Source: an uncultured Gammaproteobacteria bacterium (GTDB lineage: Bacteria > Patescibacteriota > Microgenomatia > Levybacterales > UBA12049). Taken from it: a stretch of DNA of 64,000 nt. Below the pieces are notes generated by a model. The model searched no databases and was not told where the DNA came from. It saw nothing but the letters and a program-made list of their open reading frames with translations. Below, piece by piece: positions 3,430 through 53,364 of the stretch (the first letter of the stretch is position 1; the number at the start of each line of letters is the position of its first letter). A program made the translations under genes and the position numbers. Location of the stretch: positions 13,423 through 77,422 of the forward strand of contig CAZSWA010000002.1 in assembly GCA_964610465.1 (NCBI GenBank). Reading direction: 5' to 3'.

Positions 3430-4524
3430 ATGGTGGGAAAACTTATTCTGCAAGACGGAACCTCAATTGAAGGACAAAGCTTTGGCGCAACGATAGCTAG
3501 CGCAGGTGAAGCAGTATTTTCAACCGGTATGGTCGGATACCCGGAAAGTCTCACTGATCCATCTTATAAAGGGCAATTGCTTATCCTAACTTATCCATTA
3601 GTTGGAAATTATGGAGTCCCAAATAAAAAACTATGGGAATCAAATAATCTTATGGTTTCAGGTCTCATAGTTAATAACTATATTGATACTCCTTCACATT
3701 TTCTAAGTGCAAGAACTCTTGCTCAGTGGTTTCAAAACGAAGGTATTCCGCTTATACAGGTAGCAGACACACGAATGCTAACCCAAAAGATACGGGATGA
3801 AGGCAACAAACTTGCAAAAATAGTTTTTGATAAAGATATTACGTATTATGACCCAAATCAGGAAAATCTTGTCGCTCAAGTATCAACGAAAGAAATTATT
3901 TTCAATCCTGCACCTGCGTCCAACGGAAAAACAAAAACGATTTTACTTATTGATTGCGGAGCGAAGAAAAATATTGAACGGGAGCTTCTTAAACGAAATG
4001 TAAATGTAATAACAGTTCCATGGGATTTTAATCCTTTTTCATCAAAAGGAGAAAATGTGCTTAAAGAACTTACTGGCAAAGAACACTTTGATGGCATACT
4101 TGTATCCAATGGTCCAGGCGATCCAAAATTTGCACAAAAAACAATTCAAACAATTAAAAAAGCACTAGATCTCAAAATTCCTGTTCTTGGAATTTGTCTT
4201 GGACATCAACTTTTAAGCCTTGCAGCAGGCGGAGATACGAAAAAACTAAAATACGGACACAGAAGCCAAAATCAACCATGTATTATGGAAGGAAGCAGCA
4301 GATGTTTTATTACGACGCAAAATCATGGATTTGCCGTTTTTGAAATTCCGGATGGGTTTAAGACCTGGTTTACCAATGCCAATGATGGATCAAATGAAGG
4401 CGTAATTCATACCAAATTGCCTTTTATGTCAGTACAATTTCATCCTGAAGCAACACCTGGCCCTGTTGATGCAGATTGGATATTTGATTATTTCTTGAAA
4501 CGAATTGGAAATCAGGAATTATGA
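3430..4524 (+). CDS. carA: Carbamoyl-phosphate synthase small (glutaminase) subunit
   Basis: CPSase small N-domain followed by a class I glutamine amidotransferase domain with GICLGHQLL (catalytic Cys) and FHPE. Confidence 0.9.
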   Translation: MVGKLILQDGTSIEGQSFGATIASAGEAVFSTGMVGYPESLTDPSYKGQLLILTYPLVGNYGVPNKKLWESNNLMVSGLIVNNYIDTPSHFLSARTLAQWFQNEGIPLIQVADTRMLTQKIRDEGNKLAKIVFDKDITYYDPNQENLVAQVSTKEIIFNPAPASNGKTKTILLIDCGAKKNIERELLKRNVNVITVPWDFNPFSSKGENVLKELTGKEHFDGILVSNGPGDPKFAQKTIQTIKKALDLKIPVLGICLGHQLLSLAAGGDTKKLKYGHRSQNQPCIMEGSSRCFITTQNHGFAVFEIPDGFKTWFTNANDGSNEGVIHTKLPFMSVQFHPEATPGPVDADWIFDYFLKRIGNQEL

Positions 4525-4560: not shown

Positions 4561-7500
4561 ATGAAACAAATGAAAAACGAAAAAAAGTTTCAAAAGGTAT
4601 TAGTTCTTGGTTCCGGTGCACTCAAAATAGGGGAGGCAGGAGAGTTTGATTATTCTGGCTCTCAGGCAATAAAAGCAATGAAAGAAGAGGGGATACAAAC
4701 AGTATTGGTCAATCCCAATATCGCAACTATACAAACTTCAAAATTTCTTGCTGACTCAGTGTATTTTCTGCCGGTCAATGAATTTTTTGTTACAAAAGTG
4801 ATAGAAAAGGAAAAACCTGATGGCATTCTCTTATCTTTTGGCGGACAGACAGCACTAAATTGCGGTATTCAACTGTACAAAAAGAAAATTCTTGAGAGAA
4901 ATGGCATCGAAATTTTGGGAACTCCCATGTCTGCAATTCTTTTGTCAGAAGACAGAAAAAAATTTGCCAATCATCTGCACAAACTTAATGTCTCAACACC
5001 AATCAGTAAAACTGCATATAAAACAAGAGAGGCTTTAGAAATTGCACAGGGATTAGGCTATCCGGTTATGGTACGTGCAGGATTTGCGCTTGGAGGACAG
5101 GGATCTGGTATTGCACAAAATGAGGAGCATCTAAAACAAATTGCTGACCATGCGTTTTCATTTGTACCCCAAATTCTGGTTGAAAAATATCTGCATCACT
5201 ATAAAGAAGTTGAATATGAAGTAGTCAGAGATAAATATGACAACTGTATTACAGTCTGCAATATGGAGAATATGGACCCGCTTGGAATTCATACTGGTGA
5301 ATCAATTGTTATTGCTCCAAGCCAAACGCTTACCAATTTTGAATATCATACCCTTCGCAATATTTCTATCAAAATTGTAAAAAGTCTTGGGATAGTAGGC
5401 GAGTGCAATGTACAGTTTGCGTTGAATCCGCGTCCACAAAATGATACTTCAATTGAGTATTACGTAATAGAACTGAATGCACGGCTTTCAAGAAGTTCAG
5501 CACTTGCTAGTAAAGCAACCGGATATCCTTTGGCATATGTTGCAGCCAAGTTGGCTCTTGGAAAGAATCTTACCCAATTGCAAAATAAAGTCACCAAAGC
5601 AACCCAATTTTGTTTTGAGCCTGCACTCGATTATGTCACTGTCAAAATTCCAAGATGGGATATTGAAAAATTCAAAGGTGCAGAAGAAACTATCGGCAGC
5701 AGCATGAAATCAGTTGGAGAAGTAATGGGAATCGGACGAACTTTTGAAGAAGCATATCAGAAGGCGCTTCGAATGCTGGATTTAAATTTTGAAGGAGCAG
5801 TTAATGAAAAAGTATTTCAAAAGAATGGAGAAAAAATCACCCATCTTCTTGGAAGACCAACTCCCAAACGTATGTTTGCAATAGCCAAGGCATTGATGGA
5901 AGGAGTAAGTGTTGAAGAAATCTATGATATCACTGGCATTGATCCGTGGTTTATCTATAGAATCAAAAATATTGTAGAAGAAGAAAAGAAATTAACCATG
6001 TCATCTCGAAAAGTTCTGCAAAGCAGAACGACGAGAGATCCCCTACACCCAAGTAGCATGCATGAGATTTCTCCCCACACTCGGCGGGGTCGAAATGACA
6101 CAATAACAAAATCCCATCTTCTTCACCTTAAGCAGCTTGGTTTTTCTGACAAAAGAATAGGATTTCTCTTAGGAGTATCTGAGCTTGAAATACGAAGTTT
6201 GAGGAAAAAATATGAAGTTATCCCTTCCATATTTCAAATTGATACGTTGGCTGGAGAATTTCCTGCTCAAACTAATTATCTCTACCTCACTTATAATGGT
6301 GCTCATAATGATGTGAAACCTACCAATCAGCAAGGAGTCATTGTCTTAGGTTCTGGACCATATAGAATTGGTTCATCGGTTGAGTTTGACTGGACAAGTG
6401 TCAACACAGTTATGTCCCTAAAAAAACATGGGAAAAAATCAATCATTATCAATTGCAACCCCGAAACTGTTTCAACTGATTATGATATTTCTGATAGATT
6501 GTATTTTGAAGAATTGACCTTTGAACGTATTGCTGATGTGTATGACTTTGAAAATCCCTATGGAGTTATTATTTCAGTTGGTGGACAAACACCAAACAAC
6601 AGAGCAATGCCATTAAAAAAATATGGATGCAATATACTAGGAACTGACCCTTATGATATTGATAGAGCAGAAGATAGGAATAAATTTTCAGCACTTCTTG
6701 ATACACTTGGTATTAAGCAGCCTTCCTGGAATAAGTTTAATAATATTGATGAAGCGCTCAAATTTGCTGAGAAAGTCGGCTTTCCTGTTCTTATTCGTCC
6801 ATCCTATGTATTATCTGGAAGTAACATGAAAATTTGTCACAATCCTGCAGAACTTATGCAATATCTTGAGCAAGTCTCAACAATTTCTCAGGAGTATCCT
6901 ATCACTGTCTCAAAGTTTATACGTGATGCCAAAGAAATCGAGATAGATGGTGTTTCTGAAAAAGGAATTGTGAAAGCAATTGTTATCTCAGAACATATCG
7001 AAAATGCAGGTGTTCATTCAGGAGACGCGTCAATTCTGCTTCCACCGCAAAAACTCTATATTGCAACACTTCGGAAATTAAGAATCATTGCTGCTGATGT
7101 GGCAGAAGCGCTCAACATCACAGGACCATTTAATATCCAGTGTCTTGCCAAAGACAATCAGGTTTCAGTTATTGAAATCAATCTTCGCGCCTCCCGCACA
7201 TTACCGTTTATTTCGAAAGTAACAGGAGTGAATTTTATTGAGATGGCAACAGATGCGTTTTTCCATAAAAATATAAAACCTTTATCAATCAATTTCCTTG
7301 ACTACAATTATGTTGCAGCAAAAGTCGCACAGTTCTCCTTTGCTCGTTTAACTGGAGCAGACCCTGTGCTTGATGTTGAAATGGCATCAACAGGAGAAGT
7401 TGCCTGCTTTGGCGAAGATGCGGAAGAAGCATTTCTCAAAGCAGAATTAAGTGTGGGAGGCCATATACCACAAAAAGGAGTCTTTGTAAGTCTTGGCGGA

Positions 7501-7950
7501 GATATAAATAAAGTAAAATTCCTGGAAAGCGCAAGAAGATTACAAATACTTGGGCTCCCTATATATGCAACTGAAAAAACTGCCAAATATCTTAAAAAAA
7601 ATGGAATTCAAGTAAAACGCTTGTATAAATTGCATGAACAAAAAACTCCAAACATTTTACAGTACTTTCAGAAAGGCAAAGTTGACCTTGCAATTAATAT
7701 TACAGATAAAGATATAAAAAAAGAAGTGAATGATGACTATGCGATTCGTAGAACTGCAGTGGATTTAAATATCCCGCTTTTTACCAATCCGCAAAAAGCA
7801 GCACTTTTTATCAAAGCACTGTCTGAAAAAAATCTGCTACATCTTCCTATCAAGTCATGGGATCAATATCTCAATAATGAAAAAGCATCTAAAAAAATAA
7901 AAAAAGCTCCACAGATTGCAGAATTAATCACAACAAAAACCGATCTATAA
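4561..7950 (+). CDS. carB: Carbamoyl-phosphate synthase large subunit. It carries a ~28-aa GC-rich in-frame insertion in the oligomerisation region.
   Basis: Two ATP-grasp halves, an LGFSD oligomerisation motif and a C-terminal MGS-like domain across 1129 aa. The insertion at nt 6027-6110 is listed separately. Confidence 0.95.
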   Translation: MKQMKNEKKFQKVLVLGSGALKIGEAGEFDYSGSQAIKAMKEEGIQTVLVNPNIATIQTSKFLADSVYFLPVNEFFVTKVIEKEKPDGILLSFGGQTALNCGIQLYKKKILERNGIEILGTPMSAILLSEDRKKFANHLHKLNVSTPISKTAYKTREALEIAQGLGYPVMVRAGFALGGQGSGIAQNEEHLKQIADHAFSFVPQILVEKYLHHYKEVEYEVVRDKYDNCITVCNMENMDPLGIHTGESIVIAPSQTLTNFEYHTLRNISIKIVKSLGIVGECNVQFALNPRPQNDTSIEYYVIELNARLSRSSALASKATGYPLAYVAAKLALGKNLTQLQNKVTKATQFCFEPALDYVTVKIPRWDIEKFKGAEETIGSSMKSVGEVMGIGRTFEEAYQKALRMLDLNFEGAVNEKVFQKNGEKITHLLGRPTPKRMFAIAKALMEGVSVEEIYDITGIDPWFIYRIKNIVEEEKKLTMSSRKVLQSRTTRDPLHPSSMHEISPHTRRGRNDTITKSHLLHLKQLGFSDKRIGFLLGVSELEIRSLRKKYEVIPSIFQIDTLAGEFPAQTNYLYLTYNGAHNDVKPTNQQGVIVLGSGPYRIGSSVEFDWTSVNTVMSLKKHGKKSIIINCNPETVSTDYDISDRLYFEELTFERIADVYDFENPYGVIISVGGQTPNNRAMPLKKYGCNILGTDPYDIDRAEDRNKFSALLDTLGIKQPSWNKFNNIDEALKFAEKVGFPVLIRPSYVLSGSNMKICHNPAELMQYLEQVSTISQEYPITVSKFIRDAKEIEIDGVSEKGIVKAIVISEHIENAGVHSGDASILLPPQKLYIATLRKLRIIAADVAEALNITGPFNIQCLAKDNQVSVIEINLRASRTLPFISKVTGVNFIEMATDAFFHKNIKPLSINFLDYNYVAAKVAQFSFARLTGADPVLDVEMASTGEVACFGEDAEEAFLKAELSVGGHIPQKGVFVSLGGDINKVKFLESARRLQILGLPIYATEKTAKYLKKNGIQVKRLYKLHEQKTPNILQYFQKGKVDLAINITDKDIKKEVNDDYAIRRTAVDLNIPLFTNPQKAALFIKALSEKNLLHLPIKSWDQYLNNEKASKKIKKAPQIAELITTKTDL
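6027..6110 (+). repeat. GC-rich palindromic miniature element inserted in-frame in carB (family copy A)
   Basis: The ~50% GC patch lies in a ~33% GC gene and contains CCCC..GGGG and TCGAAATGACACAATAAC. It shares GA(G/A)(A/T)TTTCTCCC and a TCGA..ACAATAA tail with the pepP element. Confidence 0.45.
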
Positions 7951-7954
7951 ACGC

Positions 7955-9007
7955 ATGAGATTATTTACCTTACCAGGACTTATTGACCCACATGTGCATT
8001 TTCGCACTCCTGGCCAAACTCATAAAGAAGATTTTTTTACTGGAACCTCTGCCGCCCTTGCCGGAGGTTATACCACAGTAATTGACATGCCAAACAATCT
8101 TCAGCTAATCACTACAGAAGAGCGACTCAAAGAGAAAATTGCATTAGCAAAAGAGCAAGCCGTAGGTGATATAGGTTTTTACTTTGGATCGCTTGGGGAA
8201 AATTTTGCTGAGTTTCGCAAAGTGCAGAATAAAGTATTGGGACTTAAAATCTATCTTAATCAAACAACTGGCGGTTTTATTGTTGATGAAAATGTTTTCA
8301 GAAAAATCTGTGAAGCCTGGCCCAAACAACATCCAATTCTTGTCCATGCGGAAGCTGATGTTATTGCGCAAATTATCGAAATCGCTCATGAAACCAGGCA
8401 AAAACTACATATTGCACATGTAAGCTCAGAAGATGAACTGCAAACCATCATAACTGCGAAAGAAAAAGGACAGCTAGTTACCTGTGGAGTAACTCCGCAC
8501 CACTTATTTCTTACCTCAGATGATGAAAAATATCTGGGAAGTTTTGCCAAAATGAAACCAACTCTTAAATCAAAAAAAGATGTTGCATTTTTATGGAAAC
8601 ATCTTAAGTCAATTGACATAATTGAATCAGATCATGCTCCTCATACCAAAGAAGAAAAGCTATCAGAAATCTCGCCATTTGGTGTACCAGGACTTGAGAC
8701 AACGCTACCATTACTTTTGACCAGTATGCATCAGAGGAAAATTATGCTGGAAGGAATTATACAATTATGTTTTACAAATCCATCAAAAATATTTGGTATT
8801 AAACAAGATAAAGAAACAAAAATTGAAATAGATTCAACGCAAGAGTGGGAACTAAAAAATGAAAATCTTTTTACCAAATGCAAATGGTCACCTTTCAATG
8901 GCTGGAAAATGAAAGGAAAAGTCAAACGGGTATTCCTAAGAGGTACAAAAGTATTTGAAAATGATACAATGCTTGTTAAACCAGGATTTGGAAAGATAGT
9001 TTCTTAG
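7955..9007 (+). CDS. pyrC: Dihydroorotase
   Basis: N-terminal DPHVHFR metal-binding motif and the amidohydrolase fold. Consistent with its position in the pyr operon. Confidence 0.85.
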   Translation: MRLFTLPGLIDPHVHFRTPGQTHKEDFFTGTSAALAGGYTTVIDMPNNLQLITTEERLKEKIALAKEQAVGDIGFYFGSLGENFAEFRKVQNKVLGLKIYLNQTTGGFIVDENVFRKICEAWPKQHPILVHAEADVIAQIIEIAHETRQKLHIAHVSSEDELQTIITAKEKGQLVTCGVTPHHLFLTSDDEKYLGSFAKMKPTLKSKKDVAFLWKHLKSIDIIESDHAPHTKEEKLSEISPFGVPGLETTLPLLLTSMHQRKIMLEGIIQLCFTNPSKIFGIKQDKETKIEIDSTQEWELKNENLFTKCKWSPFNGWKMKGKVKRVFLRGTKVFENDTMLVKPGFGKIVS

Positions 9008-9027
9008 ATAATTATTTAATTATTGTC

Positions 9028-9048
9028 ATTCCCGACTTGATCGGGAAT
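9028..9048 (+). terminator. Short perfect hairpin ATTCCCGA-cttga-TCGGGAAT downstream of pyrC. It may be a terminator or a processing/regulatory stem.
   Basis: An 8-bp inverted repeat is seen directly with no clear T-run after it. It begins with TGTCATTC, like the GC-rich element upstream of prfA. Confidence 0.3.
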
Positions 9049-9192
9049 CTATACAACATGAATATTGCTCCTTTTTATAATCCAAATAAAACTTACGAAG
9101 AAAATTTTAATGAAGGTCCTTTTGGCGCGTTTGCAGATTAAAAAATCTATAAAGACAAAGGAGAACCAAAATATAAAGTCTTTGGAATCCCT

Positions 9193-33477: not shown

Positions 33478-34644
33478 ATGAATTTGCTTGAGAGAGTAAA
33501 AAAATTATTAGCTGAAGAGAAACTTGATGCAATTCTCCTATCATCAGTTCCCAATATTCTCTATCTCACTGGGTTTTCTCACTTTTCAAAAGATGAACGG
33601 GAAGCTTTTTTGTTAATTACTAAAAAGAATCAGTATATTTTGACAGATGGACGCTACTCGCATGCAGTGAGAACTCATATCAAAGATTTTCAGCTTGAAG
33701 AAATCTCATCCCATACTCCATTGAAAAAATTACTTTCAAAAATAGTCAAAAAAGAGAAACTTGCAAATGTTGGTATTGAAGAAACCAATCTTACAGTGGC
33801 GGAATACAAAAAATTAAAACCGCTTTTTAAAAAAGTACACCATATCACTTTGCATTCGCTTCGCGAAATAAAATCTCCACAGGAAATTACTTTGATACAA
33901 AATGCTTGTACTATCGGAGATAAAGCGTTTTCATTTATACTGACAAAACTCAAACCTGGAATTACAGAAAAAGCAATTGCCTTCGAACTTGAGTGGTTCA
34001 TCAAAAAAGAAGGTGCAGATTTTTCTTTCCCGGCAATAGTTGCATTTGCAGAAAATGCAGCCGTCCCTCATCACAAAACCGGCACTAAAAAACTTGAAGA
34101 CAATATGCCGGTGCTATTGGACTTTGGAGTCAAGTATAATGAGTATTGTTCTGATATGACAAGAACAGTATTTTTTTGCAAAGCGACAAAGAAACAAAAA
34201 ACTATCTATCACACAGTTCTTGCCGCACAACAGAAAGCAATATACTATATTGAACAACAACTAAAGCTATATTCTTCGAGCGACCACGCTCAGCGTGGGA
34301 ATCGAGAAGTTTCTCCCTATACTAAGCACGACAGTTCTCGACTTCGCTCAAACAATAATCTAGAAGCTTCTGAAGTTGATAAAGTAGCAAGAGACTATAT
34401 TATTTTCCAAAACTTCCCTTCTATTCCTCACTCTCTTGGTCATGGCATTGGTCTTGAAGTCCATGAAACACCTCACCTCTCACCAAAATCAAAAGATGTT
34501 TTAAAAAATGGCATGGTTTTCTCTCTAGAGCCAGGAATTTATGTACCGGATTTCATGGGAGTTCGGATTGAAGATTTATTTACAATACAGGAAGGCAAAC
34601 TTCTACACCTTACAAAATCCCCTAAGAATCTTATTGAATTATAA
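33478..34644 (+). CDS. pepP: Xaa-Pro aminopeptidase (M24B). It carries a ~28-aa GC-rich in-frame insertion.
   Basis: Creatinase N-domain. M24 metal ligands include HGIGLEVHE and D/D/E positions. The insertion at nt 34275-34358 is listed separately. Confidence 0.85.
   Translation: MNLLERVKKLLAEEKLDAILLSSVPNILYLTGFSHFSKDEREAFLLITKKNQYILTDGRYSHAVRTHIKDFQLEEISSHTPLKKLLSKIVKKEKLANVGIEETNLTVAEYKKLKPLFKKVHHITLHSLREIKSPQEITLIQNACTIGDKAFSFILTKLKPGITEKAIAFELEWFIKKEGADFSFPAIVAFAENAAVPHHKTGTKKLEDNMPVLLDFGVKYNEYCSDMTRTVFFCKATKKQKTIYHTVLAAQQKAIYYIEQQLKLYSSSDHAQRGNREVSPYTKHDSSRLRSNNNLEASEVDKVARDYIIFQNFPSIPHSLGHGIGLEVHETPHLSPKSKDVLKNGMVFSLEPGIYVPDFMGVRIEDLFTIQEGKLLHLTKSPKNLIEL
34275..34358 (+). repeat. GC-rich palindromic miniature element inserted in-frame in pepP (family copy B)
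   Basis: GAGCG-ACCA-CGCTC palindrome, GAAGTTTCTCCCT and a TCGACTTCGCTCAAACAATAATC tail. These features are shared with the carB element. Confidence 0.45.
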
Positions 34645-34671: not shown

Positions 34672-35961
34672 ATGTTAAAAGCACAAACATTAAAAGGCTT
34701 TCGGGATTTTCTACCACAGGAAGCCAAGAAACGGCAATACTTCATAAACACCTTACAATCGGTGTTTAAACTCTATGGCTTTGAACCACTTGAGACTCCA
34801 GCTCTTGAATATGAAGAGATTCTTCTTGGGAAATACGGCGAAGAAGGCGATAAACTTATGTATCGGTTTGAAGATTTGGGGAAACGCAAAGTCGCGCTTC
34901 GCTATGACCAAACCGTTCCTCTTGCCCGTGTAGCAGCACAATATGCTTCAGTAAGCTCAGCACAAGGTCAACCACTCCTTCCTATGCCATTTAAACGTTA
35001 TCAAATCCAGCCGGTATGGCGCGCAGAAAACACGCAGAAAGGACGGTTTAGAGAGTTTCTGCAATGTGACATAGATACGCTTGGTACTTCATCTCTTATC
35101 GCAGATGCGGAAATTATTGCTGCTTGCGTAAATGCATTACAGAAACTTGGATTTCAAAATTTTAAAATACTCGTAAATGACAGACGCGTATTTTCAACTC
35201 TTATTGAGCGAGAGCTAGCAAGTGAAGTTGAGATACCACTTATTGTTCGCGCGATTGATAAAATGAAAAAAATTGGTACAGAAGGAGTGATAAAAGAGCT
35301 TATTGACGCAGGAATTGCTGAGCAACGTTCACAAGAGATATTAGATACTATGAAATCCCAGCAAGAATCAGATACTGTTGTCAAGGAAATACGCAATACT
35401 CTTAAAACTCTTTCAATAGATGAGAAATATATTGAATTTGACCCGACACTTGCACGAGGTCTTGATTATTATACAGGCATGATTTTTGAAGTTGAAATTG
35501 AAGGATATAGTGCAGGTTCCGTTGCAGGAGGCGGAAGATATGACAATCTTATTGGTTTATTTACTAACCAACCAATTCCAGCAGTTGGTTGCGCATTTGG
35601 ATTTGACAGAATTATGGAAGCATTGGAAAAACAAAACCTTTTCCCATCAAACCTTACTGAATCCTCAACCAAAATTCTGGTAACTATTTTTTCACCTGAG
35701 TTAAAAGAGCAATCAATTAAAATCAGTTCTCAATTGCGTTTGAACAATATTACTACTGAAATCTACTTAAACGAGAATGCAAAACTTGATAAGCAACTTA
35801 AATATGCAGACAACAAAAATATTCCCTTTGTACTTATTGCAGGTCCTGAAGAAATAAAAAACAATCAGGTAAAAGTAAAAAATATGAGGGAAAGAACAGA
35901 ACAATCATTGACTTTAGATGAACTTCTTAATAAGCTAAAAGATAGCAGTGAAAATCTCTAA
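34672..35961 (+). CDS. hisS: Histidine--tRNA ligase
   Basis: Class II motifs (GFRDFLP, YRFEDL..R, GGGRYD) and an anticodon-binding C-domain. Confidence 0.9.
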   Translation: MLKAQTLKGFRDFLPQEAKKRQYFINTLQSVFKLYGFEPLETPALEYEEILLGKYGEEGDKLMYRFEDLGKRKVALRYDQTVPLARVAAQYASVSSAQGQPLLPMPFKRYQIQPVWRAENTQKGRFREFLQCDIDTLGTSSLIADAEIIAACVNALQKLGFQNFKILVNDRRVFSTLIERELASEVEIPLIVRAIDKMKKIGTEGVIKELIDAGIAEQRSQEILDTMKSQQESDTVVKEIRNTLKTLSIDEKYIEFDPTLARGLDYYTGMIFEVEIEGYSAGSVAGGGRYDNLIGLFTNQPIPAVGCAFGFDRIMEALEKQNLFPSNLTESSTKILVTIFSPELKEQSIKISSQLRLNNITTEIYLNENAKLDKQLKYADNKNIPFVLIAGPEEIKNNQVKVKNMRERTEQSLTLDELLNKLKDSSENL

Positions 35962-41049: not shown

Positions 41050-41118
41050 CTGTCATTCTGAGCCGCTTTGGCGAACGAAGAATCCCATGAGATCCTTCGC
41101 TATCGCTCAGGATGACCC
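41050..41118 (+). repeat. GC-rich structured element in the rpmE-prfA spacer (family copy C)
   Basis: A 12-bp long-range stem GTCATTCTGAGC/GCTCAGGATGAC encloses CCCATGAGATCCTTCGC. It shares CATGAGAT..TC with the carB copy. Confidence 0.4.
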
Positions 41119-41128
41119 TAAACCTCTT

Positions 41129-42019
41129 ATGTCAGATTATAGACTCATTCAACTCCAGGAACTAGACCAAAAAATACAAGAAACCAAATCACTTCTTGAA
41201 GATCCTTCTATGGCTGAATTGGCACATCAAGAAATAGCAGATCTTGAAAACCAAAAGAAAGTAATTGAAGAAAGTCTTGAGCGTTCTACGAGTAATAATG
41301 AACAGAGTCTTGATGAAAGAAATGTGCTTTTGGAAGTAAAAGGAGCTGCGGGTGGAGATGAGGCAAAATTGTGGGCTGAAGAACTGATTCGTATGTACTT
41401 GCGCTATGCTCAAAGAAAAGGATTCAATGTCGAACTACTTGATGAAACTGTTATTAAAATAAAAGGAAGAAATGCATTTGGAAATTTTAAGTATGAAGCT
41501 GGCGTGCATCGTGTTCAAAGAATTCCTAAGACTGAGAAAAAAGGACGTATCCATACCTCAACTGCAACTGTGTCGATATTACCGGAGCTTGAAGATATTG
41601 ATATGCATATTAATCCGGAAGATATAGATTTTGAAGCATTTAGAAGCGGCGGACATGGCGGCCAAAATGTCAATAAAGTTTCAACAGCAGTAAGGATAAA
41701 ACATATCCCAACAGGAATTGTAGTTACCTCACAGGCTGAGCGTTCACAAATACAGAATCGTGAGATAGCAATGGAACTTCTTAGAGCAAAACTTTGGGAA
41801 ATGCAAATTGAAAAACAAAATAAGGAAATCTCGTCCCTTAAAGCAACTCAGGTGGGACGCGGAATGCGGGCTGAGAAAATCAAAACATATAATTTCCCGC
41901 AGGATAGACTCACAGATCACAGAATTAATAAATCCTGGAAAAATTTGCCGCTTATACTTGATGGAGATATACCTGAAGAAAAACCAACAGAAGAACAAGC
42001 TATAGGAGTGCAAGAGTAA
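41129..42019 (+). CDS. prfA: Peptide chain release factor 1
   Basis: GGQ motif (SGGHGGQNVNKV) and an RF1-type tripeptide region IPKTEKKGRIHTS (PKT in place of PAT). The start is at the internal ATG (MSDYRLIQ). Confidence 0.9.
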   Translation: MSDYRLIQLQELDQKIQETKSLLEDPSMAELAHQEIADLENQKKVIEESLERSTSNNEQSLDERNVLLEVKGAAGGDEAKLWAEELIRMYLRYAQRKGFNVELLDETVIKIKGRNAFGNFKYEAGVHRVQRIPKTEKKGRIHTSTATVSILPELEDIDMHINPEDIDFEAFRSGGHGGQNVNKVSTAVRIKHIPTGIVVTSQAERSQIQNREIAMELLRAKLWEMQIEKQNKEISSLKATQVGRGMRAEKIKTYNFPQDRLTDHRINKSWKNLPLILDGDIPEEKPTEEQAIGVQE

Positions 42020-52970: not shown

Positions 52971-53132
52971 TTATCTAAAAAGCAAGAGTAAAAGTGCAAC
53001 TACTACAAATCCTCCTCCAAGCACTATATAAAACAAATCTTTCTCATGCTTTGTCCAATGATGACTTCTGCTTGCTGCATGTGATGTATGATGTCTTGCG
53101 ACATGTCTGTGTGAAACTTTTTTTCTTTTCAA
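52971..53132 (-). CDS. Small His-rich single-TM protein (~53 aa, TTG start). Below the ORF-track threshold.
   Basis: Strong SD AAAGGAGGTGA 8 nt before TTG. The sequence reads ..VSHRHVARHHTSHAASRSHHW.. then LFYIVLGGGFVVVALLLLLF (YjcZ-like GGGF hydrophobic tail). Confidence 0.35.
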   Translation of the reverse strand: MKRKKVSHRHVARHHTSHAASRSHHWTKHEKDLFYIVLGGGFVVVALLLLLFR

Positions 53133-53140
53133 TCTGATCA

Positions 53141-53230
53141 CCTCCTTTAAAATCTCTTGATTTTAAAGGATCCTCACGGAGGCCTGCGGCCTGAGAACCG
53201 CAGTTCGAAGGACCCTTCCTCGATAGTTTT
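53141..53230 (-). ncRNA. GC-rich structured leader/ncRNA candidate. An 11-bp hairpin partly sequesters the SD of the small His-rich protein, and a cluster of short GC hairpins lies upstream.
   Basis: CCTTTAAAATC-aaga-GATTTTAAAGG overlaps AAAGGAGG. Hairpins CCTC-CGT-GAGG, CTGCGG..CCGCAG and GAAGG-GTC-CTTC. The ~60% GC patch sits in an AT-rich spacer. Confidence 0.3.
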
Positions 53231-53364
53231 CTTAAATTCTAATATTAAGTACTATTACAACATCCGAGACTTGCATTGCTCTTTTCACCACAAAAATAAT
53301 TGGTCTTTATCTATGATACAGTATTTTAAGATGGGCTTGTCAAGAGGAAAAATAGATGAGTAAA

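Follow-up and report, generated by a model that had tools for sequence, protein, structure and literature searches.

Short palindromic repeats lying in frame within protein-coding genes were at first considered peculiar to Rickettsia; examples from a few other phyla followed. Rickettsia palindromic elements (RPEs; Ogata et al. 2000 Science 290:347 and 2002 Genome Res 12:808, as summarised in PMC2229807) occur between genes and in frame in housekeeping genes, where the host protein is functional and the insert has been judged neutral or slightly deleterious (PMC2229807). CGTC-tagged repetitive extragenic palindromes (REPs) were defined by Di Nocera, De Gregorio & Rocco (2013, BMC Genomics 14:522; PMC3733652), who equated the RPE-6 and RPE-4 elements of R. 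conorii with CGTC-1 and CGTC-4. Their unit has a CGTC tag (in many cases TGTC or CCTC) that stays unpaired, stems of 8-9 bp, nearly all of them with AT at the start, a loop of 4-5 nt, and a CCA-like tail; units mostly form head-to-head dimers with the tags outside, heterodimers are frequent, and spacers span 20-100 bp (PMC3733652). These REPs lie mainly after genes, their intragenic dimers encode 20-30 residues, often in replication/repair genes and tRNA synthetases, and no dedicated transposase has been reported (PMC3733652). The hosts listed are Proteobacteria, Chlorobi, Bacteroidetes, Spirochaetes, and Thermotogae, and candidate-phyla (Patescibacteria) bacteria are not among them (PMC3733652). 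Here we describe a GC-rich block in frame within a pepP gene of an uncultured bacterium placed in the Patescibacteriota (class Microgenomatia), in a 64,000-nucleotide stretch of contig CAZSWA010000002.1 (assembly GCA_964610465.1, positions 13,423 to 77,422; hereafter, the window). The block is very probably a copy of a short, dispersed, non-coding palindromic repeat of the REP/RPE class that is tolerated in frame.

The host gene (33478-34644, plus strand) is intact and encodes a pepP-like Xaa-Pro peptidase of 388 residues, with Pfam matches to Creatinase_N and the pita-bread Peptidase_M24 domain (E-values of 1.3e-57 and 2.8e-21) and PDB homologues down to 4.5e-52. Both domains and the family-conserved residues place the protein in peptidase family M24B; in the homologue alignment, all family-invariant columns, including several Asp, His, and Glu positions of the catalytic domain, are kept. 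The best homologues carry the labels Roizmanbacteria, Levybacteria, and “Patescibacteria group,” and from these best hits the source is most likely a candidate-phyla bacterium of Microgenomates type. A preliminary description of this DNA had reported an in-frame GC-rich block at 34275-34358, and that block, translated as YSSSDHAQRGNREVSPYTKHDSSRLRSNN, is present within a few bases of those limits, at 34270-34357, with a G+C content of 0.48, compared with 0.36 for the window. The stretch ...LYSSSDHAQRGNREVSPYTKHDSSRLRSNNNLE... lies in the same open reading frame (ORF), and the insert adds 28-30 residues (∼30 codons) in frame. The inserted peptide is hydrophilic, rich in Ser, Arg, and Asn, and uninterrupted by stop codons.

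The block is not situated between the creatinase-N and catalytic domains, as had been proposed. The Pfam M24 match is broken by it, covering residues 139-265 and resuming near residue 295, and the solved homologues 3q6d, 1wn1, and 5cnx have only 3-4 residues at this position and likewise resume near residue 295, which puts the insert within the catalytic domain and past its long helix. The proposal that canonical M24B proteins lack the block agrees with these structures and with an alignment of the 120 best homologues, 82 of which have a short loop there. An AlphaFold model built from 36 homologues has a mean pLDDT of 90.8, with values of <50 only at residues 270-292, so the loop is modelled with low confidence. 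The identical 388-residue protein is encoded on five contigs, including Logan assemblies from at least two sequencing runs, and the insert is therefore no assembly artefact.

The pepP repeat is a head-to-head dimer of 88 nt on the plus strand, with its TATT...AATA termini outside. Its left unit (34270-34308) consists of TATTCTTCGAGCGA, a nested hairpin CCACGC-tca-GCGTGG, and GAATCGAGAA, and the reverse complement of this unit matches TTCTCGAYTN{0,30}CGCTCRAASAATA exactly. A spacer, GTTTCTCCCTATACTAAGCACGACAG (34309-34334), which is not conserved among related copies, separates it from the right unit (34335-34357), TTCTCGACT-T-CGCTCAAACAATA, a basic unit that has no nested hairpin and is again an exact match. 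Both arms thus conform to the family pattern, and none of 100 shuffles gave any match. In the basic unit, pairing involves TTC, tandem G.A, and GC, the loop is GAA, and a nested hairpin may be enclosed; as single-stranded DNA the repeat folds with z values of −4.0 and −4.35 on its two strands relative to shuffles. The motifs noticed earlier, namely, the palindrome GAGCG-ACCA-CGCTC, GAAGTTTCTCCCT, and the TCGA..CAAACAATAATC tail, are all found in the pepP copy, whose ends read cTAT|ATTC.. and ..CAATA|atc. Two of the six reading frames are open through the window copy, and the consensus unit has a stop codon in just one of six. Searches of the window with Rfam at gathering thresholds returned one tRNA and no match at the inserts, and ARAGORN returned only a tRNA-Leu. 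Explanations by an intein, an intron, or recoding were rejected: the segment is of ∼90 nt, its frame is continuous without stops, and it matches no RNA family.

The same units are widely dispersed. A metagenome collection was scanned with the pattern TTCTCGACTN{0,30}CGCTCRAASAATA, which was matched in at least 120 contigs against a chance estimate of roughly 14. Among the matches listed (736 kb) there are 153 arms, of which 33 (22%) are interior to ORFs of at least 200 residues; the rest fall in short frames and are thus intergenic. Host genes of in-frame arms that were confirmed with Pfam encode CysRS, PriA, HMG-CoA reductase, a MurE-type ligase, DHFR, a PfkB kinase, RecF, and TrmD, and further hosts recognized by eye are another pepP, a reverse transcriptase, a CCA-adding enzyme, a GT39-like membrane protein, SHMT, and PrmC. 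In other genes the repeat DNA is read in other frames (ILRA.., FFER.., and LLD..ARTI). The family unit can be written TATT-S-TTCGAGCGR-[X]-RRTCGAGAA-S-T, where X is a GC-rich module of between 0-2 nt and ∼30 nt. Of the distinct X modules of ≥14 nt, 57 of 71 fold better than their own shuffles (mean of −4.3 versus −1.4 kcal/mol), and their stem sequences differ. Head-to-head dimers with outer TATT/AATA termini are represented by 15 examples, including that of the window, and tail-to-tail dimers with abutting termini occur on four contigs (L138, L112, L093, and L107); the dimers fold with z values between −3.2 and −4.4. When the arm TTATTSTTCGAGCGA was searched in the fetched loci, a second, intergenic copy was found in L081 immediately upstream of its pepP gene (3859-3946). 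One PriA helicase gene (L131, 7733-10018) contains four separate in-frame REP-like blocks, reading YYSSS..RSNNK, RHSERSEESP..APRDDK, CHSGESRNP..KRGMT, and SLRGGPPWLDDEAI..ASLRSAPSDNK.

Among the 120 pepP homologues, the 38 without a short loop have extensions of up to ∼30 residues, and the extension peptides are of several types: YSSS...SSRLA.ARSNN; (C/R)HSERSEES...QDD; RHAELVSAS...EILKQVQDD; SFPRKRES / DSRFRGND; and TSDGGPE...DSSEV. In four homologues for which the loop DNA was inspected, the extensions are translations of hairpin repeats: GTCATGCTGAACTTGTTTCAGCATC...GATCCTGAAACAAGTTCAGGATGAC in L083, GTCATTCTGAGCGAAGCGAAGAATCC...GGATCCTTCGGCCTGCGGCCTCAGGATGAC in L084, and the window type, TTATTCTTCGAGCGA...AGTTCTCGACT..CGCTCGAACAATAA, in L081 and L082. 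The junctions between insert and pepP are shifted by 1-3 codons between insert types. In a neighbor-joining tree of pepP with the loop masked, the distribution of inserts is patchy and polyphyletic, the types being scattered among sequences with empty loops; one clade with 75-80% amino acid identity includes empty loops (P0031 and P0037), a YSSS-type loop (P0007), and AELVSAS-type loops (P0009 and P0016). The four pepP copies of the window type have arm ends that are 86-100% identical within flanking pepP DNA that is 61-70% identical, and they vary in their nested modules and spacers; in the right arm, the window copy and the L101 pepP copy agree at 23 of 24 positions, where the flanking pepP DNA is 61-69% identical. 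Rarer insertion points, after residues 69, 209, and 355-377, also hold REP-like peptides. In a related-locus search of genome contigs, about 10 of 80 loci were Microgenomates-like, the result being diluted by the conserved M24 motifs. Some “empty” loops are themselves of low complexity: in the pepP gene of P0031 (L205), TTCTCAA is repeated about four times in tandem (..LNSQFSTLNS..), and LNxxxxxLNS is the reading in many homologues, which suggests slippage-prone or remnant sequence at a hot spot.

Compared with CGTC REPs, the pepP-type repeat likewise consists of short GC-rich hairpins, forms mostly head-to-head dimers with the termini outside, comparable in heterodimers and spacer lengths, lies both after genes and inside ORFs, counts replication/repair and tRNA synthetase genes among its hosts, and has no linked transposase. 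Repetition, single units, dimers in both orientations, and a mostly intergenic location with some intra-ORF copies all fit that class, whereas the stem, loop, and tail of the pepP copy do not: its stem does not start with AT, and its units contain a nested variable hairpin of 0-30 nt. With RPEs it shares a location both between genes and in frame in conserved genes, compatibility with the host fold, and a small, reduced genome; it differs in phylum, in sequence, and in length (classical RPE-1 is longer, at 105-146 bp), and also in that the same loop of one gene holds different repeat types in different lineages. Our link to RPEs is the statement that RPE-4 and RPE-6 are CGTC REPs (PMC3733652). 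[quoted passage not shown] The TA termini of the pepP-type repeat were forced by the search pattern, however, and beyond the termini the sequence logos show just a preference for W (A or T). No target duplication has been shown for the pepP-type repeat and no parent insertion sequence is known; in addition, its units occur singly and tail to tail, which points to REP-like rather than MITE-like behavior.

GTAG REPs and the dimeric REPINs are mobilised by REP-associated tyrosine transposases (RAYTs) of the HUH Y1 type, and a RAYT gene flanked by the same REPs is called a REPtron. The pepP-type repeat is similar in that a hairpin with a short unpaired tag forms inverted dimers able to fold into one long hairpin and is non-autonomous, but it has no GTAG tag and cannot be assigned to this class. 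No Y1 motif was found in the window. Two element-bearing contigs encode IS200-like, RAYT-like Y1_Tnp proteins (L139, 2016-2708; L108, 8050-8673), the former gene flanked on both sides by its own hairpin, TATAACGATCCCGTATYGTTAA, and the latter by GTTGTTGGAATAGG plus a GGGTCTCTCC/GGAGAGACCC hairpin. A link to these transposases was rejected because both genes are flanked by their own, unrelated repeats. The L139 gene has a TGTC head-to-head dimer ∼130 nt downstream of it.

We propose that a dimer of two inverted units, each able to carry a nested, sequence-variable GC hairpin, landed as repeat DNA in the loop after the long helix of the M24 catalytic domain. The insertion would have added whole codons with no stop in the frame used and a hydrophilic peptide, and the segment would therefore be translated as a disordered surface loop that leaves the enzyme fold and the invariant residues intact. 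By analogy with REP/RAYT and IS200/IS605 systems, copies may spread as non-autonomous DNA, probably via single-stranded hairpin intermediates, and in essential genes the survivors would be those insertions that add whole codons, lack stops, and fall in surface loops. The pepP insert is most likely selfish or neutral DNA tolerated by selection and not a functional domain.

Several observations weigh against this interpretation or limit it. The pepP copy ends in TATT-S-TT and has none of the CGTC, TGTC, or CCTC tags; among the element-bearing contigs, no transposase is linked to the pepP-type element; the window contains only one TATT-type copy; and the metagenome contigs with pattern matches carry no taxon assignment. 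The span from TATT to AATA, 88 nt, is not a multiple of three, and the true boundaries are therefore uncertain. Neither a target-site duplication nor a precise empty site has been shown: in the comparison of empty and filled pepP DNA (L205 and L083, 77% amino acid identity), the closest homologue with an empty loop differs too much there at the DNA level. Finally, that the insert is translated and nearly neutral is argued by analogy with the guanylate kinase gene of Rickettsia that has an RPE insert (PMC2229807).

A single ancient insertion in an early Microgenomates ancestor, followed by vertical inheritance and many losses, with the arms kept for a DNA or RNA function (pausing or mRNA stability), would explain why all inserts lie in one loop, and the far better conservation of the arms than of the flanking coding DNA could reflect such constraint. 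This history is nevertheless improbable, since the loop holds at least four unrelated hairpin types whose junctions differ by 1-3 codons, among closely similar proteins (75-80% identity) the loop is empty in some and of the YSSS or AELVSAS type in others, and the same units are found at many other genomic sites. Conservation of the DNA arms, but not of the peptide, among homologues also makes it very unlikely that the block is an adaptive, lineage-specific extension of the peptidase loop in which palindromy is incidental: although a hydrophilic, in-frame insert sits in an intact host gene and about one-third of homologues have some extension at this point, copies of this DNA are also found at non-coding sites and, within other genes, in other reading frames, and the loop is modelled with low confidence. 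Repeats can misassemble, and Logan contigs of the organism end inside hisS, but a chimeric join through the repeat during assembly or binning has a negligible probability given the continuous frame, the complete fold, and the recurrence of the same protein on five contigs, among them Logan assemblies of at least two runs.

The hisS gene, which adjoins pepP directly downstream, bears on a further alternative. Native hisS codons for ISSRLRSNNI in L084 (15262-15290), within the HisRS anticodon domain, are identical to the pepP right arm AGTTCTCGACTTCGCTCRAACAATA at 25 of 26 DNA positions, and the orthologous native segments of the window (35725-35749, ISSQLRLNNI) and of L004 are ∼80% identical to the arm. 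This likeness could possibly stem from gene conversion with a fortuitously similar coding segment or from an origin of the arm in hisS, and there is one strong case of it. Copies made or homogenised by gene conversion or template switching, not transposition, with an arm that may derive from the native hisS segment, would account for this resemblance between adjoining genes and would be in keeping with the lack of a dedicated transposase for CGTC REPs (PMC3733652). We give this little credence, as a single case is striking, no hisS copy is found among the 33 intragenic arms of the matches listed, and the inverted-dimer architecture and nested hairpins are left unexplained. There is a small chance that the post-helix loop of pepP is an integration hot spot for hairpin repeats in candidate-phyla bacteria, hit again and again by several REP sub-families in a site- or structure-directed and transposase-poor manner, and that, alternatively or additionally, new REP units arise from or are homogenised with native coding DNA such as hisS. 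Two Logan contigs of the window organism, from separate runs and with identical pepP (L206 and L207), end ∼930 nt into hisS, possibly through strain variation or a repeat there.

Another in-frame block had been noted in carB, and the two had been described as copies of one element. The carB insert (5999-6100, plus strand, in the ORF at 4561-7950; translated SSRKVLQSRTTRDPLHPSSMHEISPHTRRGRND) is a TGTC...GACA-bounded head-to-head heterodimer of REP-like hairpins. It adds ∼31 residues inside the oligomerisation domain and is missing from all 54 closest carB homologues. Its termini, TGTCATTTCGA...TCGAGATGACA, pair with each other on one strand; its left unit includes a nested hairpin, GTTCTGC-aaa-GCAGAAC; and its AT-start stems are imperfect, with G.A mismatches. 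Single strands fold with z values of −2.7 and −3.6 relative to shuffles. When the carB and pepP inserts were locally aligned to each other, the score was 19, no better than chance (shuffles, 15.0 ± 2.2; maximum, 26), and a generic repeat finder run on the window did not pair them. The similarity that had been pointed out between GAAGTTTCTCCCT in pepP and GAGATTTCTCCCC, which is indeed present at 6064-6076 in carB, does not involve equivalent positions, as the former covers the left unit's end together with the spacer and the latter the tail and stem of the right unit.

A relationship is nevertheless indicated by a core common to both inserts, TTC-GA-GC-GAA-GC-GA-GAA, and by a bridging copy. 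Among 159 family arms, the best match of the carB left unit is the intergenic arm of L081 (3859-3946), with a score of 30 against a null of 20.4 ± 2.4 (maximum, 26), and the nested stem GTTCTGC/GCAGAAC is common to the two. A TGTC-tagged version of the pepP-type core, TGTC-ATTTCGAGCGTAGCGAGAAAT, is located at 2838-2893 of L139; the pepP unit core GAGCGAAG..CGA.GAA is shared with the CGTC-type ATTCTGAGCGAAGCGAAGAAT of L084; and the pepP-type core TTC-GA-GC-GAA-G(T)C-GA-GAA is comparable to the CGTC-type ATTCT-GA-GC-GAA-GC-GA-AGAAT of the same contig. As judged from sequence, the carB and pepP inserts are related members of one repeat class that fall into different sub-families (TGTC ends versus TATT...AATA) and are not copies of one element, and because the links are the shared core and the L081 copy, homology is only indirect. 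What holds of the earlier view is that both are dispersed, short, GC-rich palindromic repeats. Its conclusion that mobility rather than coincidence is responsible agrees with the dispersal in at least 120 contigs, both intergenic and in frame.

Like the carB insert, two intergenic loci of the window conform to the CGTC REP description, with imperfect stems in carB and in the second of these loci. A single canonical unit (9024-9051, plus strand) begins 17 nt past the stop codon of the ORF at 7955-9007 and consists of TGTC, ATTCCCGA, the loop cttga, TCGGGAAT, and the tail cta (z = −5.3). The other is a head-to-head heterodimer, TGTC-ATTCTGAGCCGCTTTGGCGAACGAAGAAT-cccatgag-ATCCTTCGCTATCGCTCAGGAT-GACC (41051-41117, plus strand; z = −3.6), with AT-start stems, between the gene for L31 (40586-41044) and that for RF-1 (prfA). 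The longest prfA ORF begins at 41087, inside this dimer (MRSFAIAQDDPKPL..., MRSFAIAQDD..; 41087-41130), and the true RF-1 start is probably the ATG at 41129 (MSDYRLIQ...). Over ∼1 Mb of related contigs, GTC precedes 41 of 146 perfect AT-start GC hairpins, where ∼2 would be expected, and the base before GTC is T in 35 of these 41 and C in 5. Among the loops of AT-start hairpins in those contigs, CTTGA (11), CTTGT (9), and GAAA (7) are most frequent, as are CCA (17) and CTA (12) among the tails; all of this agrees with the published definition of CGTC REPs (PMC3733652). Within the window, a count of GTC followed by any hairpin was dominated by AT-rich chance hairpins (28 observed versus 26 expected), and control prefixes told no more until the stems were restricted to GC-rich ones starting with AT; heterodimers escaped a strict search for GTCAT...ATGAC in which the 16-nt arms had to be complementary.

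In-frame “selfish” palindromes are thus found here in Microgenomates-like candidate-phyla bacteria, which would be a new lineage for intragenic repeats of the REP/RPE type: it is not in the host list of the defining paper (PMC3733652), and our search of the literature available to us returned nothing relevant on REP- or RPE-like elements for Patescibacteria or the candidate phyla radiation (CPR). Candidate-phyla genomes are small, and their proteins often have unexplained insertions. A share of the housekeeping-protein loops regarded as CPR specific, for which those of pepP, carB, CysRS, PriA, RecF, MurE, DHFR, and TrmD are examples, may therefore represent repeat DNA that is translated, not functional innovation. 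The repeats also affect annotation by creating spurious starts, ORFs, and N-terminal extensions, e.g., MRSFAIAQDD.. upstream of prfA, and they are relevant to structure prediction and protein-family analysis in these lineages. In addition, the family offers many natural insertion events that could be used to learn which protein sites tolerate 20-30 extra residues. If the hot-spot and native-coding-origin explanation were true, small CPR genomes could make the origin and movement of CGTC-type REPs directly testable.

Three other features of the window were recorded. A structured, GC-rich (0.62) intergenic stretch, GGATCCTCACGGAGGCCTGCGGCCTGAGAACCGCAG... (53142-53364), separates two minus-strand genes immediately upstream of a 56-residue His/Arg-rich ORF (52971-53141); it holds AGGCC-tgc-GGCCT, which the L084 pepP insert also has in its right unit, and could represent either a leader structure or a REP unit that has decayed. 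A run of T follows a terminator-like hairpin, AAAGCAGC-agac-GCTGCTTT (2808-2832), one of the very few GC hairpins of the window that are perfect. Within a coding region, a Pro/Thr/Lys-rich linker (..PTPTPKPT..) is encoded by degenerate tandem repeats (1229-1660) whose periods are 12, 18, and 24 nt.

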